A stretch of DNA of 64,000 nt from a virus. Shown here piece by piece: positions 3,076 through 51,868 of the stretch (position 1 is its first letter; each line of letters starts with the position of its first letter). Below the pieces are notes generated by a model that saw only the letters and a list, made by a program, of their open reading frames with translations, was not told the origin of the DNA and searched no databases. Made by a program: the position numbers and the translations under genes. Location of the stretch: IMG/VR virus record IMGVR_UViG_3300045988_168162, positions 82,781 through 146,780 of that record. The stretch is one strand, 5' to 3'.

Positions 3076-4121
3076 TGCCAGGACGGCCGAAAGGATCAAA
3101 GAATAAAGCGACTATTTTGCGGGAACACGCCGAGGCCCAAGCGCGAGCACAGCGCCGGATGGAAGAAGACGAGGTCCCCGCTTATTTTGTTTGTGCGCAT
3201 TGCGGCAAGCGTTTTTTGAAACAGCAGGAAAATTTTTCGGTTTGCCAGAGTACGCTTTGGGCCGGGAATAATTATTACCTGCCGATTTGTAATAACTGCC
3301 TGAACAAGCTGTTTGACCATTACGTGGAGACATTGGGCAATGAGAACGATGCCTGCAAGCGTATTTGCATGAAGTTTGATATTTACTACAGCCAGTCGCT
3401 GCTTGACTCTACCGCGAAACATGCGCCAAATATCCCGCGCATGAAAGCCTGGCTGCGGCAAACCAATATGATCCAGCACAGAGGCAAGACATTTGATACA
3501 TACCTTGCCGAAGTGGAAGGACGTATCATCAATGAGCCGGAAGAAATCTTGGACGCTAAAGGCAAGGTTAGCCAGCGTATGCTGGAATTTTGGGGCCCAG
3601 GGTTTAAGGACCAGGATTATGTATTTTTAGATAAGGAATACAAGGACTGGATCAGCCGGTATGAGTGTAAGACCAAAGCGCAGGAGGTTTTGTTTAAAAA
3701 CATTGCTATTGCGCAGCTGAACGGCATGAAGGTTGCCAAGACGGGTGATCCAAAGGATATTAAGACTGCCAACGACAACCTGCAAAGCCTGTTGGGAAGT
3801 GCAAATATCAAACCCAACCAGACAAACGATAATGCGCTGACAGATGCCAATACATTTGGCACACTGATTGAAAAGTGGGAACGGACAAAACCGATCCCAG
3901 AGCCTGACCCTGCATGGAAAGATGTAGATGGTATTGGGCATTACTTTAGAGTCTGGGTGCTTGGTACTTTGTGCGAATTGTTTAATTTAAAAAATCCATA
4001 CAAGGCCGAATATGATGCCGAGATGGAGAAGTACACGGCGCATAAACCTGAGTACCATATGGACGAAGATGAGTCCAGCACCGCCGCAATCCGTAGCGCT
4101 GTTTTTGGCGAGGCAGAGTAA
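3072..4121 (+). CDS. Putative DNA-binding packaging protein (terminase small subunit by position) with N-terminal AT-hook and zinc-ribbon motif
   Basis: Lies immediately upstream of terL. N-terminus is MMPGRPKGSKNK (AT-hook core GRP). Also contains CAHCG..(30)..CNNC. Confidence 0.45.
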   Translation: MMPGRPKGSKNKATILREHAEAQARAQRRMEEDEVPAYFVCAHCGKRFLKQQENFSVCQSTLWAGNNYYLPICNNCLNKLFDHYVETLGNENDACKRICMKFDIYYSQSLLDSTAKHAPNIPRMKAWLRQTNMIQHRGKTFDTYLAEVEGRIINEPEEILDAKGKVSQRMLEFWGPGFKDQDYVFLDKEYKDWISRYECKTKAQEVLFKNIAIAQLNGMKVAKTGDPKDIKTANDNLQSLLGSANIKPNQTNDNALTDANTFGTLIEKWERTKPIPEPDPAWKDVDGIGHYFRVWVLGTLCELFNLKNPYKAEYDAEMEKYTAHKPEYHMDEDESSTAAIRSAVFGEAE

Positions 4122-14314: not shown

Positions 14315-15049
14315 ATGGCTATGAATCCTAATATGGCTAACCGTGAGGTTATGAACCTGGTTCTGCTGGACTACAAGACCAAGGTCCCTTACATGAACAT
14401 TGACTTTGCTAATGTTTCTACCACCAACTTTACCGCCAACCGTGTGTACGCCAAGGGCGGCTGGGGTGCCCCTAACCGCGTTGGCTTTGACGGCGAGCGT
14501 ACCGGCACCCTGCAGATCGACACCCAGATCATGCCTGCCAAGCTGTTTGCGCTGCTTTCCGGCAAGGATATTGCCAAGACCGCCAAGGTCCTGAAGCGTG
14601 AGGAGCTGGCTGCCGGTGCTGACGGTCTGGAGCTGACCGAGGAGCCCAAGACCGGTACTGTCCAGGTGTTTGCTGCGTCTGACGATTGCGGCACCCCCAT
14701 TTCTGGCGTTACCGCTACCGGCAAGAAGGTTACTGCTACCGGCATTACCGAGAACCAGAACTACATTGTTTACTACTACCTGGACAAGACCACCGGTGTG
14801 CAGAGCATTAAGTTTGACGCAGACACCTTCCCGAAGGCTTTTGAGATCCGCGGCGAGATGCCCTTTAAGACCGAGGACGAAGAGGATGTTATGTGCGACC
14901 TGACCTACTACAAGGCTCAGCCGCAGGCCACCTTTAACCTGGCTTTCCAGAACACCGGTGATCCGACCACTGTGTCCATCACCTTTGACTGCTACGCCAA
15001 CCAGGATGGCGATATTTACGAGATGACTTTTGAGGACGGCACTGTCTGA
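14315..15049 (+). CDS. Major tail (tube) protein
   Basis: AAAGGAG SD, strongly biased codon use like the capsid gene, 244 aa, own terminator. No sheath gene is present. Confidence 0.65.
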   Translation: MAMNPNMANREVMNLVLLDYKTKVPYMNIDFANVSTTNFTANRVYAKGGWGAPNRVGFDGERTGTLQIDTQIMPAKLFALLSGKDIAKTAKVLKREELAAGADGLELTEEPKTGTVQVFAASDDCGTPISGVTATGKKVTATGITENQNYIVYYYLDKTTGVQSIKFDADTFPKAFEIRGEMPFKTEDEEDVMCDLTYYKAQPQATFNLAFQNTGDPTTVSITFDCYANQDGDIYEMTFEDGTV

Positions 15050-15121: not shown

Positions 15122-15424
15122 ATGGAAGAGATTAAGTTTGTGGAGACTACAGCAGCGGAACTGCCTGCCGCGCAGGTAAAGAAGCCGCGCAAGAAGGCGA
15201 AGCCGCAGGCTGAAGAGGTTGTTATGGAGACTATGCCGGAGACGCAAGTGCCGCCGATGCAGCAGGGGATTGTTGTTTACCGCAATGAGGCTACCGATGT
15301 ACTGGGTTTTGAGTGCGATGGCCATGGCTACCAGGTGCCAGGCGCAAAAGAACTGGGGTATAAGCTTGGCGACAATGTCGATTTTATGGTAGTTGATGGA
15401 AAGATCGTGTTTGGCATTGCGTAA
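15122..15424 (+). CDS. Hypothetical protein
   Basis: AAGGAG SD, 100 aa. Confidence 0.5.
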   Translation: MEEIKFVETTAAELPAAQVKKPRKKAKPQAEEVVMETMPETQVPPMQQGIVVYRNEATDVLGFECDGHGYQVPGAKELGYKLGDNVDFMVVDGKIVFGIA

Positions 15425-15815
15425 TAAGTACAAAGTTTCGGCAAAAGAGGACCGCACCTATGATGGGATTGTGTTTGACTCTAAGGCCGAGATGAAATAC
15501 TACCGGGATGTTGTGCTGCCCGGCGTTGCCAACGGGACGATTGTGGATTATCAGTTACAAAAGCCGTATGAGCTGCAGCCGAAATTTAAACATGACGGCA
15601 AAACCGTGCGAGCTATAACTTATGTATGTGATTTTTACCTGGTGTATGCAGATGGGCATACTGAGGTAATTGATATAAAAGGTATGGCGACTACGGAAGC
15701 ATTGCTGAAGCGAAAGCTGTTTATGTACAGATACCCGGATGAAAACTGTATATGGCTGGTGGAACGCAAGGCCGGTTGGATACGATATGAAGATTGCAAA
15801 AAGCGTAAAAAATAG
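15396..15815 (+). CDS. DUF1064-family PD-(D/E)XK-like nuclease
   Basis: KYKVSAKE..YDGIVFDSKAEMKYYRDV..ELQPKF..RAITYVCDF..VIDIKGMATTEALLKRKLF matches the DUF1064 pattern known from staphylococcal phages. Confidence 0.85.
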   Translation: MERSCLALRNKYKVSAKEDRTYDGIVFDSKAEMKYYRDVVLPGVANGTIVDYQLQKPYELQPKFKHDGKTVRAITYVCDFYLVYADGHTEVIDIKGMATTEALLKRKLFMYRYPDENCIWLVERKAGWIRYEDCKKRKK

Positions 15816-15825
15816 GGAGGCTTTT

Positions 15826-15864
15826 ATGACCAATAAAATTTTGCGGGGGGGGGTACTCCCTTAA
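15826..15864 (+). promoter_or_regulatory. Leader ORF L1 with G9 tract (15845-15853)
   Basis: GGGAGG SD 5 nt upstream. As sequenced it encodes MTNKILRGGVLP and stops at TAA 15862. Confidence 0.6.
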
Positions 15865-15906
15865 TGTAGTACCCGAAATGCACCTTACGAAAGTGGGGTG
15901 TTGGGT

Positions 15907-16239
15907 ATGAGTGTTGCGCTGATGAGTGCAGGCGGCGGTAGCGGAAGTATTACAAGAGTAGAGCTTGTAGATTTGTCATTTTCACGATATAGTGGTAGTT
16001 TTACTAAAACGGCAGATGTTTCTTCGTATAAAGGATACAAAAAATTCACTAATGATAATTTTGTTGTTATGACGACATCTGTATATATGGGTGATAGCGA
16101 CGCTTATGCAGGCAGCAGTTACAGTGTGTCTTACAATCAAGATACTGGAATTGTTACTTTTACTGTGAAGATAAATACGAACGCAAATGGCGGGTATCAT
16201 CAACATTCTGCTTCTGCCAAAGGATATTTATTTTACTAA
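15907..16239 (+). CDS. MSVALMG-family paralog P1
   Basis: N-terminus MSVALMSAGGGSGS. 110 aa. AT-rich relative to its flanks. Confidence 0.65.
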   Translation: MSVALMSAGGGSGSITRVELVDLSFSRYSGSFTKTADVSSYKGYKKFTNDNFVVMTTSVYMGDSDAYAGSSYSVSYNQDTGIVTFTVKINTNANGGYHQHSASAKGYLFY

Positions 16240-16258
16240 TTAAAACAAGGAGTTATTT

Positions 16259-16300
16259 ATGAATTACATGAATTTTGTCCGGGGGGGGGGTACTGTGTAA
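16259..16300 (+). promoter_or_regulatory. Leader ORF L2 with G10 tract (16281-16290)
   Basis: AAGGAG SD 6 nt upstream. As sequenced it encodes MNYMNFVRGGGTV and stops at TAA 16298. Confidence 0.6.
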
Positions 16301-16348
16301 ACCATAGTATCTCCGAAGCATCTCGTTTAGAAAGCGAGGTGCTGTGAT

Positions 16349-16792
16349 ATGGCATTAGCTTTGATGGGGCCTGGCGGTGGCGGAAGTAATAAAGAAATAT
16401 CAAAAATGAAGTCTACAAGACTATGGACGAACGCAAACTCTTTTAAGAATTTTGACGGAAACGGTATCAAAGGAGGCCCTGGCTCCACACCAAATATTCC
16501 ACTTTCAAATTTAACTGATTATGATGTACTCGCTATTGCGTGTAAATTATACACTAACAGTTCTAATGACAATCCATTTATTAACTATATTGGAGTAAAA
16601 GAACAAATTTTGAATGGGAAAAATGGTGGATTATTTATATTGTGTGGAGGAACTGGCGGATCTGCTGGCGTTTTTAGAAACGCGCGTCTTCTCTCTACTG
16701 GCCTTTGTGTTACGTGGGACACAGGATCACTGGACGGGGAACATGTATCTAATGATGGAGCAATTCCATTGTATGTAGATGGATTAAAGTAA
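16349..16792 (+). CDS. MSVALMG-family paralog P2
   Basis: N-terminus MALALMGPGGGGSN. The LWTNAN motif is shared with P4. Confidence 0.65.
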   Translation: MALALMGPGGGGSNKEISKMKSTRLWTNANSFKNFDGNGIKGGPGSTPNIPLSNLTDYDVLAIACKLYTNSSNDNPFINYIGVKEQILNGKNGGLFILCGGTGGSAGVFRNARLLSTGLCVTWDTGSLDGEHVSNDGAIPLYVDGLK

Positions 16793-16801
16793 GAGGTAAA
16801 T

Positions 16802-17221
16802 ATGAAAATCTATGATGAGATCACTAAAGAGGAGCTGACGGCTCCTGATGAAAGTAAAGGTTATCTGTATGATAGCCAGATTAAAACTGGCATGACTAAG
16901 GACGCCTATGAAGTTATGGTAGGAACTGTTACTGAGGATTGTCCGAATGGCTTGCGCCGTTTGATCCCCGGCCATGCTGTTTTTGAGGCTTGCCAGTTCT
17001 ACCATACATATACCGACGAGGAAATCAAGCGCATGGAAGAGCAGGCTGCTGCGGAGCAGGCTGCAAAAGACCGTGAGGCCAAGATTGCGATGATTGACTC
17101 GATTGATGCGCAGGTGACTTATACTGCCATGATGACGGATACGCTGATGGAAGAGACTGATAGCGGTGAAGGCTCCGGCAGTGATGGCGCGGCTGATTCT
17201 ACTGATAGCAAGGAGGCTTAA
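16802..17221 (+). CDS. Hypothetical protein occupying the XkdW position upstream of an XkdX-like gene
   Basis: AAGAGGT SD, MKIYDEITKEELTAPDESKGYLYD N-terminus, coiled acidic C-terminus. Confidence 0.4.
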   Translation: MKIYDEITKEELTAPDESKGYLYDSQIKTGMTKDAYEVMVGTVTEDCPNGLRRLIPGHAVFEACQFYHTYTDEEIKRMEEQAAAEQAAKDREAKIAMIDSIDAQVTYTAMMTDTLMEETDSGEGSGSDGAADSTDSKEA

Positions 17222-17223
17222 TT

Positions 17224-17352
17224 ATGTTTGAGAAAATTAAGCGTTGGTATCCGAAACTGTGGAACAAAACCATGGTGAAGAATGCTGTAAAGAAGGGTGT
17301 TATTACTCCTGAACAGTACAAGGAAATTGTTGGAGAGGAGTATAAAGCATGA
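17224..17352 (+). CDS. xkdX: XkdX-family small protein
   Basis: 42 aa, MFEKIKRWYPKLWNKTMVKNAVKKGVITPEQYKEIVGEEYKA. Not in the ORF track. Its TGA overlaps the ATG of P3. Confidence 0.7.
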   Translation: MFEKIKRWYPKLWNKTMVKNAVKKGVITPEQYKEIVGEEYKA

Positions 17353-17864
17353 GTGTTGCAATGATGGGGGCTGGCGGTATCGTAAACAATCGCGCTTCTC
17401 TAGTGCCTGCTATGACATCTAACAGTCAAAATGGTTATACAGTTTCTGCAAGTAATTACTATAATAATGATAGTAGCCTTTACCCAATTTGGCACGCTTT
17501 TGATGGCAACACCATTCGTGGTGGGTGGGCTGAACAAGCAAATGGTTCTACGCTATACGTCGGTGCCAGTAATAGAAACGTAGATGTTGATATTACATTT
17601 CCAAAAGAAGTATCCGTGCATGCTGTAAAAGTTATTGCATCAACCTATGAAGCTGGTGGTGTTCGACAGCCTGCAAGTGCCTCACTTTCCTATTGCAATA
17701 AATCCGGTTCATATATTTCAGTTAATATTAACCAAATAGCTGCCGGTAAATCTGGCACGACAGACGACTGTAATGGAGTCGAATATCCTAAAAGTAAAAA
17801 ATGGCGTGTCACTTTAGTAAGATTGGGTGAATATATTGGGTTAAATCAGATTCTTTTATTTTAA
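17349..17864 (+). CDS. MSVALMG-family paralog P3 with discoidin/galactose-binding-like domain
   Basis: N-terminus MSVAMMGAGG. The body reads SASNYYNNDSSLYPIWHAFDGNTIRGGW..VDVDITFPKEVSVHAVKV..KKWRVTLVR..IGLNQILLF, an F5/8-type-C-like pattern. Confidence 0.6.
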   Translation: MSVAMMGAGGIVNNRASLVPAMTSNSQNGYTVSASNYYNNDSSLYPIWHAFDGNTIRGGWAEQANGSTLYVGASNRNVDVDITFPKEVSVHAVKVIASTYEAGGVRQPASASLSYCNKSGSYISVNINQIAAGKSGTTDDCNGVEYPKSKKWRVTLVRLGEYIGLNQILLF

Positions 17865-17899
17865 ATGTTTATTATCGAATTTAATTGGAGGTATATTTT

Positions 17900-17992
17900 A
17901 TGATTAAGAATATTCTGCGGGGGGGGGGGTATAGTAATCTAAACTATACCTCTGATATGGATACTTGTGCCGGAAAGGCGGTGCGAGTATGA
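17900..17992 (+). promoter_or_regulatory. Leader ORF L3 with G11 tract (17919-17929)
   Basis: GGAGG SD 8 nt upstream. Encodes 30 aa, MIKNILRGGGYSNLNYTSDMDTCAGKAVRV. Its TGA overlaps ATG 17989 of P4. Confidence 0.6.
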
Positions 17993-18393
17993 GTGTTGCG
18001 TTGATGGGACCTGGTGGCGGCGACTCGAATTTTAAAAAGATGTTTAAAGATTTGTCGTTTTCAAGTGCCGAAAGGGTTCTGCTCTGGACAAATAGCAATC
18101 ACACAAATAATAACACAGGCAGTGTTACTGCCGATACTGGCTCTCAGCTTTATGCTGCTTATTGTATAACTGTAAAAGGGCACTCTTCTCTTAGTCCACA
18201 ATATGTAGCTGAATTTATTGCTATTCGTGGTGCATCTCATAATGCCGTTGGTGGAATTGATAGAAGCATTTGGCGTGGTGTTAAAATTGATGGTTCAAAC
18301 ATTACAATAGGAACACCATATGCTGGTGAAACAACGCACTGGGAGAGTACCATTGTGTACCAGATTTATGGCATCAAAGGAACAGAACTTTAA
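17989..18393 (+). CDS. MSVALMG-family paralog P4
   Basis: N-terminus MSVALMGPGGGDSN. Contains the LLWTNSN motif. 134 aa. Confidence 0.65.
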   Translation: MSVALMGPGGGDSNFKKMFKDLSFSSAERVLLWTNSNHTNNNTGSVTADTGSQLYAAYCITVKGHSSLSPQYVAEFIAIRGASHNAVGGIDRSIWRGVKIDGSNITIGTPYAGETTHWESTIVYQIYGIKGTEL

Positions 18394-18409
18394 TTAAATT
18401 ATGTTATAG

Positions 18410-18446
18410 CCTCGCACCTTGGATAGGTGCGGGGCGATTTTTTATT
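18410..18446 (+). terminator. Rho-independent terminator
   Basis: CCTCGCACC / GGTGCGGGG stem followed by CGATTTTTTATTTT. Confidence 0.7.
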
Positions 18447-18463: not shown

Positions 18464-18961
18464 ATGGAAATTAAGAAAAATATTACCGTGCAGGAGCGCG
18501 TGGATTTTGTGAATTTTGTTGTGGATACTTGCACGGTGGATAGCCGCTATGTACCGGCACTGTTTGATTTTGCCTGGCGTGCGGGCGTGGTGAAGTTTTT
18601 TGCACCGGAGGTTTGGGAGCACCTGGGCGGCCAGGATGATATTTGCGATTTTGTGTACAGCCGTGACGGCATTGAAATTGTAGAACACCCGGATATTGCC
18701 GAGGTCACCGCTGGCCTGTATGAAGCCTGCCAGGAAGAGATTAAGAACCGGCGCGAGGAATATATGGTGGTTTACCAGAGCGTGGCACACCCTGACCCGA
18801 TGGACCGTATTGCGGATGCCTTTGAAGAGATTGCAGGAGCCATGAAGGGGCTGAATGACCCGGACATGCTGGTGGAGATTGCCAAGAAGGCCGGGCTGGT
18901 AGGGAAGAAGGCTGCACCGGCTGGTAAGGCTGTACCGCTGGAGCTTGCTAAGAAGGAGTAA
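18464..18961 (+). CDS. Putative tail assembly chaperone
   Basis: AAAGGAG SD, acidic 165-aa protein upstream of the tape measure gene. Confidence 0.5.
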   Translation: MEIKKNITVQERVDFVNFVVDTCTVDSRYVPALFDFAWRAGVVKFFAPEVWEHLGGQDDICDFVYSRDGIEIVEHPDIAEVTAGLYEACQEEIKNRREEYMVVYQSVAHPDPMDRIADAFEEIAGAMKGLNDPDMLVEIAKKAGLVGKKAAPAGKAVPLELAKKE

Positions 18962-18964
18962 GAC

Positions 18965-19438
18965 ATGGCTACGGTAACAACGCTGAAAGGTTTAGAGCTT
19001 GAAATGCAGCGGCGCATTAACCGTGCCCTACGTGGAGAAGTTGCGAACGAAGTAGAGAAATGCGTGCAGAAACATGTGCAGCAGGATGTTTTAAGCAAAT
19101 ATGAGCCTGTTGCATATGAACGGCGTGGCGGTGGCGGCCTGGAAGGTGAGGCCAATATCAAAAGCGCTGTACGAGACAAAACTTTGACGGTTAAGGATGT
19201 GGCACAAATAGAGGGGCCAAGACTCCCTGGTTACTCGGCCAGTCATGCTTCTGACACTGAATTTTCCAAACTGATTGAAGGATATGGAAAAGGCGTTGCG
19301 AACCCGTGGGGTGGCAGGAATGGTGCGTGGACAAAACCGCGCCCATTTATGACAAATGCAAAAAAAGAGATTGTCCGTGAAAATAGTCAGGTTCATGGGC
19401 GGATTGTAAAAGCTATAAAAAAGCAATTTCCTGAATAA
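18965..19438 (+). CDS. Hypothetical tail-module protein
   Basis: AAGGAG SD, 157 aa. Weak resemblance to HK97 gp10-type proteins. Confidence 0.4.
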   Translation: MATVTTLKGLELEMQRRINRALRGEVANEVEKCVQKHVQQDVLSKYEPVAYERRGGGGLEGEANIKSAVRDKTLTVKDVAQIEGPRLPGYSASHASDTEFSKLIEGYGKGVANPWGGRNGAWTKPRPFMTNAKKEIVRENSQVHGRIVKAIKKQFPE

Positions 19439-19526
19439 ACGGCAGAGGCTTCGGCCTTTGTCTTGAGTGGTTAGTGATAAATAACCGTTGAAGAGAAAGG
19501 CCGAAAGCCATAAGGAGGATAAAATT

Positions 19527-22500
19527 ATGGCAGAAGATTTAAATATTAAGGTAAAGGTAACACCTGATACCAGTGGGGTACAGGGAGAGCTAAATGGACA
19601 GGCTGGTAGGTTTAATTTGCCAGTAAAAGTGTCACTGCAGAATGTTGCGGATATACAAACTCAAATTCAAAATATCGGCAAAAACATTGATGTTAAAGTT
19701 AATCTTACTATGGCACAGAACGGTGTAAAAAATCAACTAAATAGTTTAAAGAATCAAAAGGTTGATATGCAACTGTTCGACACCACGAAACTTACGCAGG
19801 AATTAAATAAAGTAAGCAGTGCTATTGAAAAAGCTGTCTCAAAGATTCAGATCGCTTTGTCTACAAAGATAGATTCTACAATGAAGGCAACTGCGAGCAA
19901 TGTCGAAAACCTCGGAAAATCTTTTGGCACTATTCAGACAAGAATAGATTCTATTAAAAATACTGGCGACAAGGCTAAAATGCAGGCCGGCCTCGATACT
20001 GCCAAGAAGAACTATAACAATCTTATTCAGCTTGGCACATTGACAACAGAACAATTTAGTGGGATGGCTACTCAGCTTGCTATGGTGAATCGCCAAGTTC
20101 TTGACATTGTTGCGTCTGAAAAGAAATTAGAAAATCAAGCAGCAAGAGTCGCCAAGATCAATATGCGTGGCGATGAACTTATTGATTCTTACAATCGTGG
20201 TAATGCAGATTTGAAAGATGTGTATGATGCGTCTGCTAAGAAATATAGAACAAAAGACGACAGAAACGCAAAACGCAGATTGGATCGACAGCAAAATAGG
20301 ATTAGCGGTCTCATTCAAAATTTCCAGAACAATCCTACGACAGAAAACTTTGATCTTCTATCTCATGAAATTACGATGTATGAGCGAAACAGCAATGATT
20401 TGCAGAGTACATTAAGAGCCGAAAAGAAAGAATGGGAAGATAACGAAAAAGCAAAACAGAATGCTGCAAAAGCTACTGCTGCCGTGGCAAAGAAGACGCA
20501 GGAAGCGCAACAAAAAGCAGAAGATGCACGAAAAAAGACTGCATCGAATTTGAATCAGCAATTTGCAAATTCTGATTTTTCTGATTCGCAAATTAAATAT
20601 TTCGCAGCAAAAAACAACGGTTATAGCACTGCAGATATGAAGCGGTACTTCGCAAGTACAGACAAATGGAACATTAAGCTCAAATCCGCGATTTCCGCAT
20701 TTAATAATGATCCTACTGAACAGAATCTTAAAAAGCTGACTACTACCTATAATGGATATATTACCGCCAAGAAAAAGTTGGATACTTCCTTGACTGAAGA
20801 AAAATCCAAATGGGAAAAGACAGCAGCCGGTATTAAAAAATCCGGGGAAGACCTTGGCAAAACATATTCGGCGCTTGAACAGAAAAAGGCAAAACTTGAT
20901 TCTACTTACACCAAAAAAGTAGAAGGAACACAATTTACAAATCAGGCCATTGAAGATCTTGCAAAAGGGCAAAATGGCACGACCAGTATTGCTACATTGT
21001 TTACTGATGCAGAGACCGCGAAAAAAGATTTTGAAAAAAATATGGACAGCGGTTCTCTTGCACGATATAAAGCTGCAATAGAAGCTTTGACGCAGGCGCT
21101 TGCCAAAATGGACGCAGAGCTTACTGTAGCCGCAAAAAGCTCTGACCAGTTCAATAGTCAAATGCGGGCAAAACAGAACAAATACTCCAGTGAGATGACC
21201 CGGCTTAGTCAGTCCGGCACTGATTTACAGGATCTTGCAATAAGAACTGGCCATGGAAACATGGTTAATAGCAACACGGCGGAAGGCGTACTTTGGGGAG
21301 AAGTTTCTGACGCCAGCAAAGAAGCAAGAACCGCAATGGCGGAGTTCGATCAAAAGCTTGACACAAACAGCCTTTTGAAGTACGAGCAGGCATTGCAGCA
21401 CCTAAAAGAGTTGCTATCTCAGTTCCGTGATGAACTGACGAAAACTATTACTGCTACTAATAAGATGGGCGATATTAAAGATACAAACGCCGCCCAAATG
21501 AGTGAATATCAGAAGAGTTTGCAGGAGCTTACCGCAAGATATAATACCGCTGTTGCAAGTAAACAGGCCAACGGTAAGGATATGGGCGGTTTGCTTGTCG
21601 GAACGGATTTAACTGCTATCAATGACGCTTACACTAAAGCAGATCAAGCCAAAGCGAATTTTGAGCGCGATATGAATCAGACTTCGCTGGCTGCCTACAA
21701 AACGGCCATGGCTGCTTTGGCGCAGGAAATTCGCAATCTGACTTCTGCTTTGGACTCTGCTGATAATTCTGCGGAGAAGGCATTTAGTTCGTTGCCAACA
21801 CAGATGAATGCTGTCGAAGGCACCCTCAAGACGTTAAATGATACATATCGTGCGCAGCAAAACCGCGGTAAAAGTGATGCTGGCGTAGAAAGCACAATTC
21901 AGCTTTATACTGATGTGCTTAAAGAGATGCGGCAGATAGAAGCTTCTGGCAGTAATGACTATTCTCAATTCACGGAAATGTTCAAGAAGTTTGATTCGCA
22001 ATTGCAAGCATCTGGCATTAACATCAATAACTTTACAGACTTCATGCGAGCCATGAATTCCGTGGCTACTCAGGCAAAAGTTTCTATTGGTGATCTTGGC
22101 AACGAATTCAAACAGCAACAGAGCATTGAGTCTTTGAATAAGCGCTTGAACAATCTACTGTATACCATGGAGCGCTATGTTGAGATCAATAAAAAGATCC
22201 AGGGCAATTCTGACGTAATGAACCAGTACAATAGTGTGAAATCTGATATTCAGAGTGCCTTGCGGAGTACAGATGGCGCATTTAAAGAAAGTACATTGTC
22301 TAAGGCTGCTGAAGGATTTTCGGCACTGAAAAAACAGGCGCAGGATCTTGAGCTTGAGGGTAAGACACTGAGCCAAGTATTCCAGAATCTGTTTGGCCAG
22401 CATTTTAGTACGATGGTCGCCATGGGTGCGCTGCATTTGATGCAGAATAGCTTACAGCAGGTTTATCAGAATGTCGTGGATATTGATACGGCTATGACGG

Positions 22501-23579
22501 AACTGAAGAAGGTTACGGATGAGACGAGCTCGACTTATTCTAAGTTTTTGAGTGACGCCGGTAACCAGGCCAAGGAGTTGGGCGCCAGTGTTAGCGATGT
22601 GGTTAGCGCGACTGCCGACTTTGCCCGGCTTGGATATAACTTACAGGATGCCAATGAGATTGCCGAGTCTGCCATTATGTTTAACCGTGTTGGCGACGGC
22701 GTTTCTGATGTTAATGAGGCCAGCGAAGATATTATTTCGGCTATGAAGGCTTTTAATATCGAGGCCGAAAACAGTCAGCAAATCGTTGACAAATACAACG
22801 AGGTAGGTAATAATTATGCCATCAGTTCGGCAGGTGTCGCGGACGCCTTGACTAGATCGGCCGCTGCACTGCATGCCGCCGGAAACGATATTAACCAATC
22901 TATTGGTATGATCGTAGCAGCCAATGATGTCGCCCAATCGCCCGAGCAGGTAGGAAATGCCTTAAAGGTACTTTCTTTACGTATTCGTGGAGCGACTACT
23001 GAACTTGAGGCCATGGGCGAAGATGCCGACGGAGCCGCGACCAGCACAGCAAAACTACAGGCTGAAATTAAGGCTTTGTCTGGCGTTAATATCATGAAGG
23101 ATCGGGATACATTCAAATCTACATACGAAATCTTGGATGAATTGGCTGATAAGTGGGATAGTCTAACTGACGTCTCCAAGGCCAGCATCCTGGAGGACCT
23201 TGCTGGCAAAAACCGCGCCAGTGTTGTAGCCGGTATGTTGGAAAACTGGGATGATGCCAAGAAAGCCATGGAGACAGCACAGAAAAGTGCAGGCAGCGCA
23301 GAAGCGGAGTTGGAGACAGCATTGGATTCCGTGCAGGGCAAGCTCTCTCAGTTCCAAGCTACTTTTCAATCTTTTTCCGAGACCGTCCTCGATTCTGATT
23401 TAGTTAAAGGTATTATTGATTTTGGTACAAGCGCACTAGATGCTGCAGATGGATTTACCAAATGGGCCGGAGTAATCCCGACCTTGACCGCAGCATTAAG
23501 TGCCTTTTTGTCGTTGTCTGGTACGAAGACTCAGGGCAGTATTCAGATGCTCGCTTACGCAGTAGGAATAGCTGCGTAG
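19527..23579 (+). CDS. Tape measure protein, N-terminal part with TP901-family core region
   Basis: AAGGAGG SD plus ATG 19527. Coiled-coil repeats are followed by the core ..AMTELKKVTDE..GASVSDVVSATADFARLGY..NEVGNNYAISSAGVADALTRSAAAL... It ends at TAG just as a hydrophobic segment begins. Confidence 0.85.
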   Translation: MAEDLNIKVKVTPDTSGVQGELNGQAGRFNLPVKVSLQNVADIQTQIQNIGKNIDVKVNLTMAQNGVKNQLNSLKNQKVDMQLFDTTKLTQELNKVSSAIEKAVSKIQIALSTKIDSTMKATASNVENLGKSFGTIQTRIDSIKNTGDKAKMQAGLDTAKKNYNNLIQLGTLTTEQFSGMATQLAMVNRQVLDIVASEKKLENQAARVAKINMRGDELIDSYNRGNADLKDVYDASAKKYRTKDDRNAKRRLDRQQNRISGLIQNFQNNPTTENFDLLSHEITMYERNSNDLQSTLRAEKKEWEDNEKAKQNAAKATAAVAKKTQEAQQKAEDARKKTASNLNQQFANSDFSDSQIKYFAAKNNGYSTADMKRYFASTDKWNIKLKSAISAFNNDPTEQNLKKLTTTYNGYITAKKKLDTSLTEEKSKWEKTAAGIKKSGEDLGKTYSALEQKKAKLDSTYTKKVEGTQFTNQAIEDLAKGQNGTTSIATLFTDAETAKKDFEKNMDSGSLARYKAAIEALTQALAKMDAELTVAAKSSDQFNSQMRAKQNKYSSEMTRLSQSGTDLQDLAIRTGHGNMVNSNTAEGVLWGEVSDASKEARTAMAEFDQKLDTNSLLKYEQALQHLKELLSQFRDELTKTITATNKMGDIKDTNAAQMSEYQKSLQELTARYNTAVASKQANGKDMGGLLVGTDLTAINDAYTKADQAKANFERDMNQTSLAAYKTAMAALAQEIRNLTSALDSADNSAEKAFSSLPTQMNAVEGTLKTLNDTYRAQQNRGKSDAGVESTIQLYTDVLKEMRQIEASGSNDYSQFTEMFKKFDSQLQASGININNFTDFMRAMNSVATQAKVSIGDLGNEFKQQQSIESLNKRLNNLLYTMERYVEINKKIQGNSDVMNQYNSVKSDIQSALRSTDGAFKESTLSKAAEGFSALKKQAQDLELEGKTLSQVFQNLFGQHFSTMVAMGALHLMQNSLQQVYQNVVDIDTAMTELKKVTDETSSTYSKFLSDAGNQAKELGASVSDVVSATADFARLGYNLQDANEIAESAIMFNRVGDGVSDVNEASEDIISAMKAFNIEAENSQQIVDKYNEVGNNYAISSAGVADALTRSAAALHAAGNDINQSIGMIVAANDVAQSPEQVGNALKVLSLRIRGATTELEAMGEDADGAATSTAKLQAEIKALSGVNIMKDRDTFKSTYEILDELADKWDSLTDVSKASILEDLAGKNRASVVAGMLENWDDAKKAMETAQKSAGSAEAELETALDSVQGKLSQFQATFQSFSETVLDSDLVKGIIDFGTSALDAADGFTKWAGVIPTLTAALSAFLSLSGTKTQGSIQMLAYAVGIAA

Positions 23580-24090: not shown

Positions 24091-24519
24091 ATGGCTGCAT
24101 ATACATTTGACGGAATTCCAGCAGGGGCGCTTACAATTGGTATTCTTGTGGATGTGTATGCAAATTTTGCACGAAAATGTGTTACTGGAATTATAGATAC
24201 TGGGTGCTCAAATACATGTATTTCTGAGGAATTGGCAGGGATAATGGAGTTGCATCCTTGTGGCCATACAGAATATACTGTTGTTGGCGGAGATAGGGTT
24301 TCCGTCAATAAATACATGGTTAATATAATGATTGATGACACAATACCGTGCGGAGACATCGAAGCAGGTTCTTACCATAAAGGCTCGGAATTTTACGATG
24401 TGATTATTGGCATGGATATACTTAGTAAGTGCGATTTTGCAGTTACAAGCGCAAATGGCCACATGAAGCTAACTATGGAGTATCCTTCTAAACGAGACCT
24501 CGATTTTACAAAAGAATAA
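24091..24519 (+). CDS. Retropepsin-like (clan AA) aspartic protease
   Basis: IIDTGCSNTCIS (DTG motif) and VIIGMDILSKCDF (ILGMDFL-like flap/dimer motif). Confidence 0.7.
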   Translation: MAAYTFDGIPAGALTIGILVDVYANFARKCVTGIIDTGCSNTCISEELAGIMELHPCGHTEYTVVGGDRVSVNKYMVNIMIDDTIPCGDIEAGSYHKGSEFYDVIIGMDILSKCDFAVTSANGHMKLTMEYPSKRDLDFTKE

Positions 24520-27322: not shown

Positions 27323-27351
27323 ATTATATCACACTACTATCGTTGGAACAA
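27323..27351 (-). promoter_or_regulatory. Putative extended -10 promoter of the minus-strand operon
   Basis: On the minus strand: TTGTTC, 17-nt spacer, TGATATAAT. It overlaps the first codons of the 27343 ORF. Confidence 0.35.
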
Positions 27352-30300
27352 GTGATCTTGAATCTTTTGAATATGTTTGGTACTGGTAAGAATGTCAACA
27401 CTGGCAATACATATATGACATTCTTGGGTAAGGAAGCATTGACTGCTCGTGATGATGTTAAAGCCGTCATTAACGAAGTCGAAAAGCTAAAGAATGCTGC
27501 CGGCCAAAGTATCTCTATTAACGATACTGCTGGAATTTGGGGCGCGTTTTTGCTTGGAAAGAACAATCAGAATTATGACTTTTCAAAAAGCTTAGGCAAC
27601 GACATAATTGCTCTACGGGCATACCTGGATGACGTAACGAATAAGGGGATGTCTGCGGCGGATGCCTTAAATGATGTACAGGTATCTGTATCTGGTACAA
27701 CGGTTGAATTTGAAGATTTTGCTAAGAGTATAGACACTACAGGCATGCATTTTGACCAAGCGGCCTCTATTTATATTCCTGCATTTATAAAGCAACTGAC
27801 CAGTGCCGTCACAATTACAACGGTAATGAAGGGCGTCCTCAAAGGGCTTGTTGGCATTATTGGAAATCTTGCCGTTGCTGCCGTTGCATCTTTGGCTATG
27901 GGTGCATTGATAAAAGCTGCAGAAAAGGCTGGCGAAGTTCTTCATAATTTCAAAGATAATACTTTCGGAAAATCTCTTGAAGAACAAAAAGAGCAGATTG
28001 ACGAAATGGGGCAGGCACTGGACAATACGGCCAGCTCTATTGATTCCTACAAATCAAAAATTACAGACCTGAAAGATTCTATCGACAGTGGCACACTCAG
28101 TGAGCAGGAAGCTTATCAGGCACGCAAGGATCTGCTAGAAATACAGGATGAGCTGATTCAAAAATATCCTGAAGAAGCGTCTGGTATTGATCTGCTAAAT
28201 GGCAGTCTGGAAACACAACTCGACTTGTTAAATGGTATTACTGAGGCAAAAGCTCGTGCTTATCTCTCTGAAAATAATGATATAATTCAGAAATCTTATG
28301 AGGAGATGACAAAGCAGCGCACCTATAAATCTACCGGCTTTGATAATTATCTTGAAGCTGATAGCAATGACATGTCTGAAATCGAAAAGATTGCTCAGAA
28401 ATATGCGGACAAAGGACTGGCATTTGCTCAATATGGTTCTGAAAAGAATGGTAAGGCGCGTTACGATATTGAAGTGACTGCGGATGTTTCGCAGGCCAAA
28501 GATGCTATTGATGATTTTTATAACGACGTACAAAAAAGTAATCTTATAAGTGACGATGCAAAAGAAGCCTTATCTTCTCGTTTGTCGCAGTGGAGCAATG
28601 AAGCAAAAGGCATAGTTGACGAGTATGGTGATTACGCAAAACAAGCGGCCAAGTATGAAATTCAACTGAATGACACTTGGTCCAAGACTTACTCCGACCT
28701 TGAAGAAGCCCAGGAAACCTACAATGATGCCGTTGCCAAGAATGACGATAAGGCCATTGCGGCGGCACTGAAAAAGGTCAAGGCCGCTCAGGACGAATTT
28801 GCCAATACTGATATTGACAATAGCTTTGTGCAGCAGTATATGCAGGCGCAGGCGGATCAGTTGGACAGTGCTACGAAACTACAGGCTGTTCAGGCCGGAC
28901 TTTCTGAAACCTTTAAGGGTACCACCTCCAACTACAAGTCTCTGAATGATTATCTTGATGTTACAGATCACAAAGCTGAACAGCTTACCGACAGTATCAC
29001 TTATAATCTGAATGAACTTAAAGGTCTGGATGATATTGATATCCTTAACATTGGCAGCCTCGAAAAAGCAGGATCTGCATCTAAAAATTATACAGACGAA
29101 CAAATTGCCTCGTATAATCGTTTAAAAGGCGTAGCAGATCAGCTTGGCGTTTCCATGGATGACCTAATTGATATTTTTGTCAAGATTGGTCTCGTAACTA
29201 GCGACAATATCAAGTATACCAACGAGTTTACCAGCTCCGCGTTGACCATGGCAACTGCAGCTAGCAAGGCTATATCCAGTGTTACTTCTATCCTGAATTC
29301 GCAGGGAACTGGCGTTAATGTTGATGCCGATTCTTACAGCGAACTGATCAAGGATAATGCTGAATACGCGGCCGCACTGCAATACAGCAACGGCACCATG
29401 CAGCTGAACCGCGAGATGGCACAGCAGCTTACCGAAGCAAAAGTAAAAGAGTCTGAGGCTTATATCAAGGTGGCTTACAGCCAGAACCAGGTCAAGTATG
29501 AGAAGGTTAAGAATGACCTATCCTATTACACAGATGAAGTTCGTAAATCCATAGAAGCTGACGCAGACAAGTTGAAGCAGTTTGACGAAGAAAAGGCTGC
29601 ACTGGAAAGCCAGAGCCAAGCACTTCGTGACAATTGCCGTAGTTTGCAGATGCAGTACTCGGCTTTGATGCAGGCGAGTAGTGCCTACCAGGATTGGTTG
29701 AACGCACAGAATGCTACTGAATCCGGCGACATGTACGACAGCGCCATTGAAGCAAAGAAAGCTTTGGCCGAAGGACTGAAGAACGGCAAAATTGGCACGG
29801 TCAAGTGGCAGGCTGCTTCCGAGTTTTTGATCCCGGATGACTACGAGGGGACAGCTGCTGAATACATCAAGAAATTGAATCGCTACTTTAAGCAGGCCAG
29901 CGATGGTTCTGATGATGGTTCCGGCATCAACAACTTTATCACGGATAGCCTGAAGGCCGGGCTGATGAAGCAAGAGAGTGATGGCTCTATTAAGATCCTG
30001 GCAGACAAGACCACGGAAGATTTTGCAAAAGAGCTGAAACTTTCGCCAGATGCTGTGCAATCTATCTTTGGTGAGATGCAGGAGTATGGCTGGACCTTTG
30101 ACTGGGGCAGCATGCTTGGCGACCCAATCACTAACTATAAAATGCAGCTGGACGACATTAAAGACCAGATGGCAGACCTTGAGCCGGATAGTGAAGCGTG
30201 GCAGGTTCTGGATGCCAGGGCAGAAGAGTTAGAGAGTGCTCTGGATGGGCTGTACCAGCGCAGCGGACTTGACCAGCTTGCCGATACGGTACAGCAAGCG

Positions 30301-38066: not shown

Positions 38067-38597
38067 ATGGGAATTAAATTTAAAAGACAAGGTGGCGGCT
38101 CGACCAACTATAACTCAGCCAAAGCGCCTACAAGTTTGAATTATGGCGAGCCTGCCGTTGACAGTGAAGGCCGCATTTATGTTGGCAATGGACAGCGCCA
38201 GGTAGTGAGCCGCGTAAAAATTGCCGACAGCTGTACCAATGCGACCAGTGCTACGACTGCGGTGCGAGCCACGAATGCCAGTAATGCCGACCGGGCAAAA
38301 TTCGATTTGCCGCTGTACCATGCTTATCTTTCGGCGTCCAGCTGGAGCAATTATGGGAGTTATTATACACAGTCTCCCAGTTGTTACGCAGAGAGCGGCG
38401 GTCCTAGTATGACATCCGACATGCAGTTGAGCCCGCCTATGACGCAGGGCACAGGGGTGCAATCCACAGACGAATCGCTAATGGAAACGCTAAACATTAT
38501 CAATGCGGGAACGACTACGCCCGGTTACGGAAGAATTACCGTAAAGGTTTGGGAAAAACCGGAGACAGACATTACTGTGTATTATTACGCACGATAA
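38067..38597 (+). CDS. Short fibre-like protein
   Basis: The C-terminal roughly 90 aa are paralogous to the C-terminus of the 51869 gene (..LNIINAG..VYYYAR). Confidence 0.5.
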   Translation: MGIKFKRQGGGSTNYNSAKAPTSLNYGEPAVDSEGRIYVGNGQRQVVSRVKIADSCTNATSATTAVRATNASNADRAKFDLPLYHAYLSASSWSNYGSYYTQSPSCYAESGGPSMTSDMQLSPPMTQGTGVQSTDESLMETLNIINAGTTTPGYGRITVKVWEKPETDITVYYYAR

Positions 38598-38624: not shown

Positions 38625-41600
38625 TTGGCAATATCCTTTGAAGAATCCAGAAAGAAATTTGAGAGCGCAATAGCGAACGAAGCTGCCGAACCGGCAATGC
38701 TTGCCTCCTTTGAGGAAGTAGAAGCAGTGGCAGCGGAACCTGTTATGCAGGCCGTTGTTGGAGACGATTTCACCCGCAGCGACAAATATAAATGGTATGA
38801 CCAGTATGAGGACAGTGCATACTCGACCATTGATAAGCTGAAAAACATCAAGATGGACGACAACCAGATCAACCTGACACAGGAAGATAACAGCCAGTTT
38901 ATCCCGTTTGAGATGCCGCGCTACTATGATGGCGTTGACCTGATGCAGATGCTGATCCAGGTACATTATGTTAACAAGGAAAACCAGGACGGCATTGCCA
39001 CGCCGGTAAATGTTACATACAGTGTGGACAAGATCCACTTTAACTGGTTGGTCGACAAGAACGTGACCAATGTTGAGGGTGAAGTCGATTTTGAAATCAC
39101 GGCTACCGGTTCTAACGAAAAGAACGAATCTTATCTGTGGAAGAGCCGCCCGAATGGCAAGCTGAATATTTTGAAGTCCTTGGCCGGCAATGGTGTGATT
39201 AAGCCGAGCGACGACTGGTACACCGGTTTTGTGCAGCTAATGGACGAGAAGGTTTCGGAAGCTACCAAACAGGCACAGGCTGCTGCCCAGAGTGCCACCG
39301 AGGCCAAGACGGCTGTTGCAAATGTGGACAGCAAGATTTCCAGCGCTGCTGCCGGTATCAAGCATGAGCTGCAGGCCGACCTGGATGCGAACTATGCCAA
39401 GAAAACAGAGCTTGACACGCTGAAAAACAAGGTGGATAACCTGAATGGCCTGGCCGATTTTGATGTGACCTTTAACAATGACACGAAGGAAATGACTTTC
39501 CTGAATGGCAGTGAGGAAATTAAAAAGGTCGCGATCGACACCAGCCCTTCCGCTGAATGGGTGACTGCTTACGGCAAGACAGTAGACAGCAAAGTTTCTG
39601 CCGCCGTTACGCCTGTGCAGACGGAGTTGACCGAGTACAAGACCGCCAATGACAAGGCTGTAAAGGATTTGCAGGACAGTGTTGGCAATCTGCCGGAGAC
39701 GCTGAAAACTTCTTATTATAATAAGGAAGCCACTGATAAGCTGCTGAAGGAAAAGGCGGATGCCTCTGTTATTGACGGTATTCGCAACGATGTTACGCAG
39801 GCAAAGAATAATGTAGCTGATATGCAGGGCACGGTGGACAGCCTGAATACTGCTGTTGGCGAAATTCAGGGCAAGCTGGATGACATTGGCAAGAATGCCG
39901 GGCATGAGTATGACATTACCTACGAGGACAGTAAACTGACACTTATGGAGGATGGCACGCCGAAGACGCAGGTGACGATTGTTGGCGGTGGTGGCGGTGG
40001 CCCTGCTGCGGGCAGCACGATTACGATCGAGCGTATCGGCGAGTCTGCAATTACGGCTGTTGCCGGTGACCCTGTTGTGGTCAAGTTCCGGTTCACGAGT
40101 GTGGACAGTGCGGGCGATGATACAGGCAATGCGACAGGCACATGGTATGTTGGCAATACAAAGGTTGCTACCCAGACCATTATGCAGGGCGAAAACAGCT
40201 TTGACATCACGAAGTATCTGCACAGCGGTGAGAACCAGATCCGTTTGACAGTTGTAGACAGCATGGATACGACAGGTTCCAAGAAGTGGAGTGCCAATGT
40301 CGTTGATTTCTATCTGGAATCCACCTTTGATGACAGCCTTTTCTATAGTGGCGAGGTCACGGTGCGCTATACACCGTATGGCAGCGTTGAGAAGAAGATT
40401 GATTTTGCGCTGGACGGTAAGTCGATTGGTGGCACGACTACCAGTGTGACTGGCCGACAGATGACCTATTCTATTCCTGTGCAGAAGCACGGCAGTCACC
40501 TGTTGGAAATCAGCATGACGGCGGAGATCAACAGCAAGACCGTTAAGTCCAATGTCATCAAGAAGGACATTATGTGGGTGGCTGAGGGCGAGACTGCACC
40601 CATTATCAGCTGTGCTGTGAGAGATTACGAGACGAAACAGTACAACAAGGTGTCCATTGAGTACACCGTATACGACCCTGCGTCCAGCACGAGCACTGTA
40701 AAGCTGGCTGTGGACGGCGTGACCGAGTCTACCCTGACTGTTGGGCGCACAAAGCAGATCTGGAGCTTTAAGAGCGCGAACAAGGGCAAGCATACGCTGA
40801 CGATCACTTGCGGCGAGACCGTAAAGACGATCAGTGTGAATGTGGTTGACCTTGGCGTTGTAATCGAGCCTGTTACTACGAACCTAGCCTTTGATTTTAA
40901 CCCAAGCGGTAAGACCAACGCCAGTGCAGACCGGCTTTGGACCGATGGCCAGACTAGCCTGAGTGTAAGCGATAACTTTGACTGGAGCAATGGCGGCTAC
41001 CAGATCGACAGTGACGGCGATACCTATTTCTGCGTAAAAGCGGGCACCAAAGCCACGATCGATTATAAGCTTTTTGCCGATGACGCGAAGAAACTTGGCA
41101 AGAACTTTAAGATGATTTTTAAGACCACCAACGTGCGGGACTATAATGCTACGGCGCTGACTTGCCTGAACGGTGGTATTGGCCTGAATGTGCAGGCCCA
41201 GAAAGTTGCACTGACCAGTGAGCAGAACAGTATTGAACTGCCCACATGCGAAGACGACTTTATGGAATTTGAGCTGAATATTCTGCCGGATAGCCAGTAC
41301 CGCGAGATGGTGCTGTGGCTGGATGGCATCCCATGCCGTGTACAGCTGTATGAATCCAGTGACAGCTTTACGCAGGCAAACCCGGTTGGCATCACGATTG
41401 GTTCTGACGATTGCGATGTGTTGATATATCGCATGAAGAGCTATATGATGAACCTGACTGACGATGAGATCCTGGACAACTTTATTGCAGACGCCAAGAA
41501 CGCTGACGAGATGATCGAGCGGTACAACCGCAACAACATCACGGATGCAAGCGGTGAGCTGAACCCGGACATTCTGGCGGAGCGCTGCCCCGACCTGCGT

Positions 41601-49801: not shown

Positions 49802-49828
49802 TCTTTGACCTTAAAGGAGGTTTGAGAT

Positions 49829-50602: not shown

Positions 50603-50608
50603 TTTTTA

Positions 50609-51223: not shown

Positions 51224-51226
51224 TGT

Positions 51227-51862: not shown

Positions 51863-51868
51863 TGAGAT

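Follow-up and report, generated by a model that had tools for sequence, protein, structure and literature searches.

Candidate contingency loci for alternative adhesin modules in a siphovirus-like phage of gut Bacillota

We analyzed a block of genes in a 64,000-nucleotide (nt) stretch of a viral genome (IMG/VR record IMGVR_UViG_3300045988_168162, positions 82,781 to 146,780; hereafter the window, whose own numbering is used throughout). The window comes from a siphovirus-like Bacillota phage, and the block contains four genes, P1 to P4, whose products share an N-terminal peptide, here called the plug. Based on an analysis that was computational throughout, we consider it probable that the block is made up of contingency loci by which a gut Bacillota siphophage controls its alternative receptor-binding or adhesin modules. 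All on the plus strand, P1 (15907-16239; 110 aa, slot 1, body family A), P2 (16349-16792; 147 aa, slot 2, body H, with an LWTN motif), P3 (17349-17864; 171 aa, slot 3, body B) and P4 (17989-18393; 134 aa, slot 4, body F, with an LLWTNxN...IYGIKGTEL domain) are open reading frames (ORFs) found exactly where the initial annotation had placed them. That annotation took the four genes for co-expressed alternatives and missed three poly-G leaders, by which three of the genes appear to be gated individually.

P1, P2 and P4, not P3, each follow a conserved leader of about 85 nt that contains a strong Shine-Dalgarno (SD) sequence, a short upstream ORF (uORF) with a poly-G tract, a first and a second hairpin, and the P start. 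Leader 1 (15815-15906) has the SD GGGAGG at 15815-15820 and uORF1 at 15826-15864 (MTNKILRGGVLP, then a stop codon), with 9 G at 15845-15853. In leader 2 (16247-16348), the SD AAGGAG (16247-16252) precedes uORF2 at 16259-16300 (MNYMNFVRGGGTV, then a stop codon), with 10 G at 16281-16290. Leader 4 (17887-17988) combines the SD GGAGG (17887-17891) with the 30-codon uORF4 (17900-17992) and 11 G at 17919-17929. All three leaders are on the plus strand, with 5-8 nt between each uORF SD and its ATG (at 15826, 16259, or 17900). The uORF peptides have the form M..N[IF][LV]RGGG, and the three leader tracts are the only G runs of at least 8 in the window. In the window the tracts lie in uORFs, and the P genes themselves encode the GGG of the plug with mixed codons.

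The length of the tract determines where the uORF ends. When it was changed in silico, 8, 11, or 14 G brought the uORF stop in all three leaders to +1 or -4 relative to the P ATG, and other lengths put the stop 40-57 nt upstream of that ATG, in or near hairpin 1. The ON-frame junctions are ATGA for P1 and P4 and TGA, 1 nt, ATG (TGAtATG) for P2; at the 11 G of the window, the TGA of uORF4 overlaps the P4 ATG. P3 has no tract and shows the same ATGA junction with the upstream XkdX-family gene, without a switch. The predicted state of the window is thus P4 ON, P1 (9 G) and P2 (10 G) OFF and untranslated, and the ungated P3 also translated. The frame rule holds in every leader variant that we recovered (41 units from relatives, five units of contig L091, and contigs L113 and L114, described below). 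Shuffled spacers give “one frame at the start, two early” in 6-16% of trials per leader, and the chance of the stop pattern over about four independent leader types is roughly 1e-4. In the slot-1 leader of one relative (L020, 570-581), the “GC” before the tract reads “GG”, which makes a 12-G run and turns the productive class into 7/10/13; a single base change can thus shift the phase of a switch.

Per-sequence folding predicts two hairpins for each of the 12 poly-G leader types. The 3' G's of the tract take part in hairpin 1. In hairpin 2, between 10 and 16 of the 16 nt ahead of the AUG are paired, as a rule together with some of the AUG itself. In leader 1, hairpin 1 takes up tract G's, and hairpin 2 (15869-15908) covers the SD-like GGGGUG of P1 together with the A and U of its AUG. 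Hairpin 1 of leader 2 spans 16286-16314, and hairpin 2 (16317-16343) is predicted to sequester the SD GAGGUG. The corresponding elements of leader 4 lie at 17925-17953 and 17961-17990, the second covering the SD region and the A and U of the AUG. Folding z-scores of the leaders range from -4.9 to -9.3, and from -1.8 to -5.9 in an independent run; by leader, over two runs, they are -4.9 for leader 1, -4.6 and -5.3 for leader 2, and -5.9 and -6.6 for leader 4. With a sequence resembling the anti-SD (CACCU), the 5' arm of hairpin 2 base-pairs to the SD of the P gene (GGGGUG and GAGGUG here, UGGAGGU in relatives), and in L091 hairpin 2 buries a textbook UGGAGGU. Two base pairs of hairpin 1 show double compensatory changes, in 5 of 12 sequences, and the pairing of hairpin 2 persists between P4-type and L036-type leaders despite several substitutions. 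Per-sequence folds were used because alignment-based covariation lost hairpin 2: MAFFT with RNAalifold on the 12 leaders recovered hairpin 1 only, hairpin 2 being out of register between leader types. No Rfam family fits the leaders; an RsaJ match (E 0.039) falls on the terminator of the block and was discarded as chance. In the minimum-free-energy structures of P4-type leaders (leader 4, 17886-17953) and of the L036-type leader, the 3' arm of hairpin 1 (UAUACCUC) is bound by the SD of the uORF itself (GGAGGUAUA). This pairing, an alternative to that with the tract arm, might tune uORF initiation.

These features suggest a mechanism in which translation of the uORF gates that of the P gene. 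At 8 or 11 G, a ribosome on the uORF would pass both hairpins, end on the P start, open hairpin 2 and re-initiate (ON). At 9, 10, or 12 G, it would halt 40-57 nt upstream, in hairpin 1, and hairpin 2 would stay closed (OFF). Slipped-strand mispairing during replication, probably at a high rate, would turn the genes on and off reversibly and independently of one another, so that a phage population would hold mixed adhesin repertoires, a form of bet-hedging on host surface variation. P3 would always be translated because its ATG overlaps the XkdX stop.

Relatives of the block were collected by pattern scans of IMG/VR and metagenome contigs, which gave about 24 loci of the same phage group, mostly from the human gut, and exact-protein look-ups added further ones; blastn of the block against INPHARED phages returned no match. 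The 41 complete units carry 6 G (one unit), 7 G (four), 8 G (five), 9 G (22), 10 G (four), 11 G (two), or 12 G (three), and nine further units carry 8 G (two), 9 G (five), or 10 G (two). Lengths of 7-12 G occur at leaders 1 and 4, and one relative (L039) has 11 G at leader 2. Tract length differs in 25 of the 34 unit pairs whose flanks are identical over 100 nt, which makes the tract the position that varies most, by far. About 8 of 50 window-type units are ON and about 42 are OFF; the bodies are intact nonetheless, which argues that intermittent expression is required. Of the features of a contingency locus, the block shows a repeat long enough to slip (9, 10, and 11 G, against a minimum of 7-8 nt), length variation among near-identical assemblies, and ON and OFF classes in silico. 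Gating would be independent per gene, and ON units show no mutual exclusion across contigs, which hold no ON unit in some cases, one in several and two in L110. We rejected the idea, suggested by the first contigs, that exactly one cassette is ON per genome, given the all-OFF contigs and L110, where slots 1 and 2 both have 8 G. Some contigs begin or end exactly at tracts (L107 at its start, L108 at its start and end, L114 at its end). Such breaks are suggestive of mixed tract lengths and also fit poor coverage of G runs.

The main rival to DNA-level switching is slippage at the RNA level. Under programmed recoding, every infection would yield all P proteins at a constant low, sub-stoichiometric level, owing to slippage of RNA polymerase or frameshifting of ribosomes on the G run. 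This would agree with 9 G being the mode in all slots and with a hairpin directly 3' of the tract, as in frameshift stimulators, and homopolymers of at least 9, mainly A/T runs, are known slippage sites for bacterial RNA polymerase. However, the shift needed differs within one genome (-1 or +2 for P1, +1 for P2, 0 for P4), unlike the single direction of a programmed event, and DNA tract lengths differ between otherwise identical relatives. Nor is there an X XXY YYZ heptamer or the matching spacer geometry, and the read-through frame ends in a stop, without the fusion product that a tail-chaperone frameshift yields. We therefore consider recoding unlikely as the explanation of the tracts, while DNA switching and RNA-level recoding could coexist. 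Stop-codon read-through or translational bypass fusing the uORF to P was rejected as well, since units differ in their frame relation and a stop closes the ON frame.

The P proteins begin M[SA][VL]A[LM]M[GS][PA]GGG and then diverge, and their genes have about 36 nt of DNA in common at their starts; the conserved 11-aa N-terminus described in the initial annotation is thus present at both the DNA and the protein level. A 20-nt core (ATGAGTGTTGCNNTGATGGG, at most 3 mismatches) has three matches in the window vs. 0.06 expected, and 0 of 100 shuffles reach three; the P2 start is a fourth, more diverged copy. Relatives contain 40 distinct plug sequences, in which Ala4 is encoded by GCA, GCG, or GCT, Leu5 by TTG, CTG, CTT, or TTA, and the glycines by GGC, GGT, GGA, or GGG. 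The plug amino acids are thus kept via synonymous codons, which indicates that conservation acts on the peptide, not on the DNA alone, and that the peptide is under selection. The plug is also retained in P3-type genes and in tract-less lineages. The bodies behind it had been described as unrelated, which is correct for their divergence after the plug but not for P2 and P4, which are weakly related: the LWTN motif that they were said to share is real, and an hhalign comparison of P2 with the P4 family over residues 1-73 has a probability of 87%.

Bodies also move between positions. The 61 P genes in the relatives' loci fall into 16 body clusters in four slots, three of them gated and one XkdX-coupled. 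Body B occurs in slot 2 or 3, E in 3 or 4, A in 1 or 3, and G in 3 or in a hybrid leader slot; body A is also XkdX-coupled in L028 and L114. The presence of the same body in different slots implies that recombination at the common 5' end moves bodies, and the plug-coding DNA may double as the crossover point for cassette exchange. This slot shuffling bears out the earlier suggestion that the direct repeats could drive cassette loss or gain, and the survey of relatives for cassette variation that was proposed with it yields, beside the 16 bodies in four slots, arrays of 3-11 cassettes.

The same logic recurs in two other lineages with different sequences. A 255-kb contig, L091, was reached via a 57%-identical P4 homolog and encodes a fibre-like gene, a gene of the “MKIYDE” type, and XkdX, followed by about 11 cassettes, each with a tract of 8-11 G. 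In six of them, the GGG of the plug is encoded by a tract within the gene itself (e.g., MSSQLMNPNFGGGK); one of these tracts is in frame, and the rest are off by +-1, with intact downstream ORFs of 116-181 aa. The other five cassettes have uORF leaders with a wholly different sequence and the same parts, in which a single frame takes the uORF to TAATG, to ATGA, or to a stop 3-11 nt upstream of the P start. In total, 10 of 11 L091 tracts are OFF, with bodies intact. The uORF peptides (MKNNFISSLIGFNGGG) are visibly degenerate plugs (MSSQFMNSSIGSNGGG), and a uORF may be the relic 5' end of a plug gene that retained its tract. Contigs L113 and L114 hold one array from two samples, with differing tract states. 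Its unit 3 (L113 5851-5960; L114 2673-2780) has a bona fide local plug (MSNQFMTPLSFRGGGG) as the uORF, before window-type hairpins and an MSVALM gene; this unit looks like a recombination snapshot and would show how uORF leaders arise. The array mixes MSSQFM-type and MSVALM-type plugs, which weakened the notion that plug type is lineage-specific.

The third lineage consists of temperate phages with the plug MGVAPRIPGG and a poly-C uORF. Here, C9 ends at TGATG and is ON (four loci), C10 stops early, and C8 and C11 overrun the start and are OFF (one locus each). Contigs L100 and L101 (around 3950-4000) lack the tract segment of about 29 nt, and the shortened uORF (MKHCKKSAACAARGYC, then a stop codon) still ends with TGATG on the P start, so that these appear to be natural “locked-ON” alleles. 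The most frequent poly-C length being the in-frame ON state, and the existence of tract-less locked-ON variants, are further points against recoding. These lineages also bear on the possibility that the four P proteins are constitutively co-expressed adaptors, with the poly-G incidental or assembly noise and the repeats mattering for recombination only. The common plug and the shuffled bodies are real, as that explanation requires, and Illumina assemblies are unreliable at long G runs, where contigs break. Yet it leaves unexplained the stop pattern of tracts in SD-led uORFs across more than 12 leader types and three lineages, the burial of P SDs in a conserved hairpin, and the intact L091 genes that are out of frame by exactly +-1, and we regard it as very improbable. 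Returning to switching at the DNA level, we put about even weight on the stronger proposal that this is a new type of switch. A hypermutable homopolymer in a relic-gene uORF would heritably and reversibly set access to an SD-sequestering hairpin, with arrays of 3-11 in at least three gut Bacillota phage lineages and up to 2^n module combinations on one virion scaffold.

We envisage a P protein as the N-terminal plug M-S-V-A-L-M-G-P-G-G-G joined to an exchangeable beta-sandwich body. Family searches with P1-P4 gave no Pfam or NCBIfam match and weak PHROGs tail matches for P3 only (phrog_17517, “tail protein”, E 9.5e-6), and PDB sequence searches with the P proteins returned nothing meaningful. 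The AlphaFold2 model of P3 is of low confidence (predicted local distance difference test, pLDDT, 57; predicted template modeling score, pTM, 0.61). Foldseek matched it to 2v72 (E 3e-4), 3nng (template modeling score, TM, 0.52-0.57), and about 40 further CBM32/discoidin entries, and the model aligns to 2v72, 3nng, 2w1u, 4a42, and others with E 3e-4 to 1e-2 and TM 0.4-0.57. P3 may thus, at low confidence, have a galactose-binding-like fold of the CBM32 / F5/8 type C kind and be a putative sugar binder. The discoidin/galactose-binding-like signature read from the sequence in the initial annotation agrees with this list, which is consistently CBM32 / F5/8 type C on a model of low confidence.

The P4 model (pLDDT 59) is an eight-strand beta-sandwich with a disordered N-terminus. 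Its best Foldseek match in PDB is weak (E 0.011), to the C-terminal domains of the phage K receptor-binding protein (RBP) gp144, and its structure matches in a viral library, also weak, are enriched in tail fibre and BppU-domain proteins. The domain LLWTNxN...IYGIKGTEL is rare, with 18 matches in a profile search of 1.8 billion proteins. Its distant relatives occur singly, in tandem, or as C-terminal repeats of a 559-aa fibre-like protein, and in L095-L098 a P4 homolog follows the tape measure protein (TMP), Dit, Tal (Sipho_Gp37), and a protein of 316-322 aa, which is the RBP position. The P2 and P4 bodies would then represent a fibre-tip “LWTN...IYGIK” domain and P3 a CBM32/discoidin-like module. 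That the P proteins are virion or adhesin parts, as first suggested in the initial annotation, is plausible, judged from the P4 domain at fibre ends, the homologs in the RBP position, and the weak RBP and fibre fold matches.

The plug itself would serve as a docking peptide. Over their C-terminal ~100 aa, window ORFs 38067-38597 and 51869-52891 have homology (tblastn E 3e-7 to 3e-31) to the C-termini encoded by genes that precede P genes in other contigs (the L091 fibre gene, and genes in L095 and L097). The 176-aa ORF 38067-38597 starts plug-like (MGIKFKRQGGGS) and shares its end of ~100 aa with the fibre-like 340-aa ORF 51869-52891. The shared domain may be the one on which the plug docks, or part of a plug-to-domain chain, and the two ORFs are candidate partners.

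A different function, which we consider improbable, though less so than incidental tracts in co-expressed adaptors, would be that of non-virion, “moron”-type accessories (anti-defence, superinfection exclusion, or cell-surface and glycan effectors) that are phase-varied for another reason. No P body has a family annotation, the structure matches are weak, and the block is AT-rich and looks inserted beside a DUF1064 nuclease-like gene, all of which would favor such a function. Against this, in other phages the gene in the RBP slot behind Dit-Tal is a P4 homolog, the LWTN...IYGIK domain terminates long fibre-like proteins, and P3 matches the PHROG “tail protein” family. Moreover, the neighbors in all lineages are a fibre gene, the “MKIYDE” protein, and XkdX, and the block would be co-transcribed with a structural gene, the terminator coming only after P4.

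Several observations weigh against our preferred interpretation, in which the block consists of contingency loci for receptor-binding or adhesin modules. No Pfam, NCBIfam, or PDB sequence match backs the RBP assignment, and with P3 and P4 models of low confidence (pLDDT 57-59), their fold matches are leads, not proof. The P array of the window lies between a tail-tube-like gene and chaperones, outside the baseplate module. Plug types coexist in one array, so that there is no simple one-plug-per-lineage rule, and the poly-C leader has no significant structure (z 0.4). The OFF length of 9 G is the modal one, in 28 of about 50 units, which also fits constant low expression by RNA slippage. Tract lengths were taken from short-read metagenome assemblies, in which long G runs are error-prone and contigs break. 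Finally, the host candidates from a leader-pattern scan of genome contigs (33 loci) were rejected: their plug-like starts and the gut-Bacillota candidate L085 are chance matches.

The surroundings of the P genes are those of a tail module. Upstream, on the plus strand, a virion structural protein (14315-15049; phrog_2729, E 9.7e-55) bounds the block; it has no match in Pfam, NCBIfam, or PDB sequences and is the probable tail tube by position. Downstream, also on the plus strand, an intrinsic terminator (18409-18435, annotated as 18409-18445; 11-pair stem with 8 GC, plus a T run) closes the block. Next on that strand come two genes (18464-19438; 165 and 157 aa) that are chaperone-like by their position ahead of the TMP gene (19488-23579, PF10145 match); a homolog of the second, in L107, carries PF27376 YomN. 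The block had been placed between the major tail protein and the chaperone genes; the position stands, the identities of tail tube and chaperones are positional, and two genes outside the P family, both on the plus strand, had been overlooked inside it. One encodes the 139-aa “MKIYDE...” protein (16802-17221), which sits in the XkdW position and has no Pfam or PHROG match. N-termini of this type adjoin P genes in every lineage examined (L091, L095, L097, and L113). The other encodes the 42-aa XkdX-family protein (17224-17352; PF09693, E 3.7e-16, 59.3 bits vs. a gathering cut-off of 23.5), and its TGA stop overlaps the P3 ATG in a fixed ATGA.

The AT-richness noted earlier was confirmed, with a GC content of 0.375-0.41 over the P genes vs. 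0.50-0.58 in the flanks. The closing terminator was found as reported, and the claim that there are none inside the block holds too, apart from one weak terminator-like match. No promoter in the block scores above chance, and with the sole terminator after P4, control is therefore likely translational. Directly upstream of slot 1, on the plus strand, is the DUF1064 nuclease-like gene (15393-15815; PF06356, E 3.1e-34). It overlaps a 100-aa ORF (15122-15424), the pair sits inside the tail module and is conserved at this place in relatives, and the 3' end of the DUF1064 gene precedes slot 1 there too. These two genes could conceivably belong to the cassette block, for example with a mobility or recombination function.

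Elsewhere in the window, terminase and portal genes are present, the portal being 65% identical to that of a human-faecal phage and 37-42% identical to those of Brevibacillus and Bacillus siphophages. After the tape measure gene, the 142-aa ORF 24091-24519 has a sub-threshold match to the retropepsin-like aspartyl protease family PF13975 (E 7e-5, 23.8 bits vs. a cut-off of 28.2). The distal tail region includes two very large ORFs, 27343-33138 (1931 aa) and 38625-45458 (2277 aa), the second matching phrog_14959 and phrog_24896, both without assigned function. ORFs 48509-52891 contain repeated “AADKTKLDGIAAGANNYVHP” fibre motifs.

If our interpretation is right, abundant human-gut phages hedge their host range via a built-in adhesin “phasome”, so far documented only in Campylobacter Fletchervirus. 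The uORF design would separate the switch from the protein: the product sequence stays constant, and the OFF state makes no truncated plug peptide. The leader, at ~85 nt, would be a compact and portable ON/OFF element, and the 11-residue plug with swappable bodies offers a natural module boundary for studying RBP attachment. Such loci fragment short-read assemblies, and gene calling turns their genes into fragments or pseudogenes, which probably biases gut-virome RBP catalogues and host predictions at the very determinants of host range.

The closest known system is that of the Fletchervirus phages of Campylobacter, whose RBP genes contain poly-G tracts that are hypermutable (Sorensen et al., 2021, Cell Rep 35:109214, cited in PMC11959909 and PMC10877375). 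A 2025 review calls the Fletchervirus adhesin phasome “an exceptional case”. There, as would be the case here, the length of a phage poly-G tract sets the ON or OFF state of host-recognition proteins and gives mixed progeny, and the in-gene tracts of L091 would work in this classical way. In contrast to Fletchervirus, where the tract is in the RBP gene, each tract of the window lies in a uORF and would act through coupling and an SD-sequestering hairpin; in-gene tracts occur here in six genes of L091. Our arrays also differ from the Fletchervirus system in having 3-11 cassettes with one common N-terminal peptide and shuffling slots, and in their hosts, gut Bacillota rather than Campylobacter.

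In bacteria, contingency loci with simple sequence repeats underlie phase variation in Neisseria, Haemophilus, and Campylobacter. The block resembles them in its homopolymers, in three length classes of which one is productive, and in having several independent loci per genome (a “phasome”). Putative contingency loci have also been described in T2/T4 and other coliphages (Gomez, Barrick and Waters, bioRxiv 10.1101/2025.10.21.683753). Known contingency loci have the repeat in a coding region or promoter, whereas here it is in a uORF.

Translational coupling with a sequestered ribosome-binding site is familiar from the coat and replicase genes of MS2 and from erm leader peptides. As in such systems, the upstream ORF here has its own SD, its stop lies at or overlaps the downstream start, and SD and AUG are predicted to be in a hairpin. 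Further examples of uORF regulation are given in PMC8092293 and PMC13285730. The input here would be neither a metabolite nor an antibiotic nor ribosome stalling, but a heritable change of the uORF frame.

With regard to the proteins, the lactococcal baseplate of the TP901-1 type is built of Dit, Tal, BppU, and BppL, the last a small RBP whose N-terminus plugs into BppU. P proteins are likewise small (110-175 aa), with a putative N-terminal attachment segment and a predicted beta-sandwich head. In L095-L097, a P4 homolog follows TMP, Dit, Tal, and the 316-322-aa protein, and there are weak Foldseek matches to BppU-domain proteins. The two systems differ in that there is no detectable sequence or Pfam relationship and the window genes lie outside the baseplate module. 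As for CBM32 / F5/8 type C modules, the P3 model aligns to them, and P3 has no Pfam match.

Phage tropism switches also include the invertible tail-fibre segments of Mu (Gin) and P1 (Cin) and the diversity-generating retroelement of Bordetella phage BPP-1. Like the P genes, they pair a constant part with alternative C-termini for receptor binding, and they switch stochastically, as the P genes would, but we saw no invertase, inverted repeats, reverse transcriptase, or template repeat here, and the switch would be tract slippage. Within the literature that we searched, we found no repeat tract in a uORF used as a switch and no plug-sharing multi-cassette arrays, and neither of them in phages of gut Bacillota. 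Thus, phage poly-G RBP variation and uORF coupling with occluded SDs were already known, and what would be new here is the proposed switch with its tract in the uORF.

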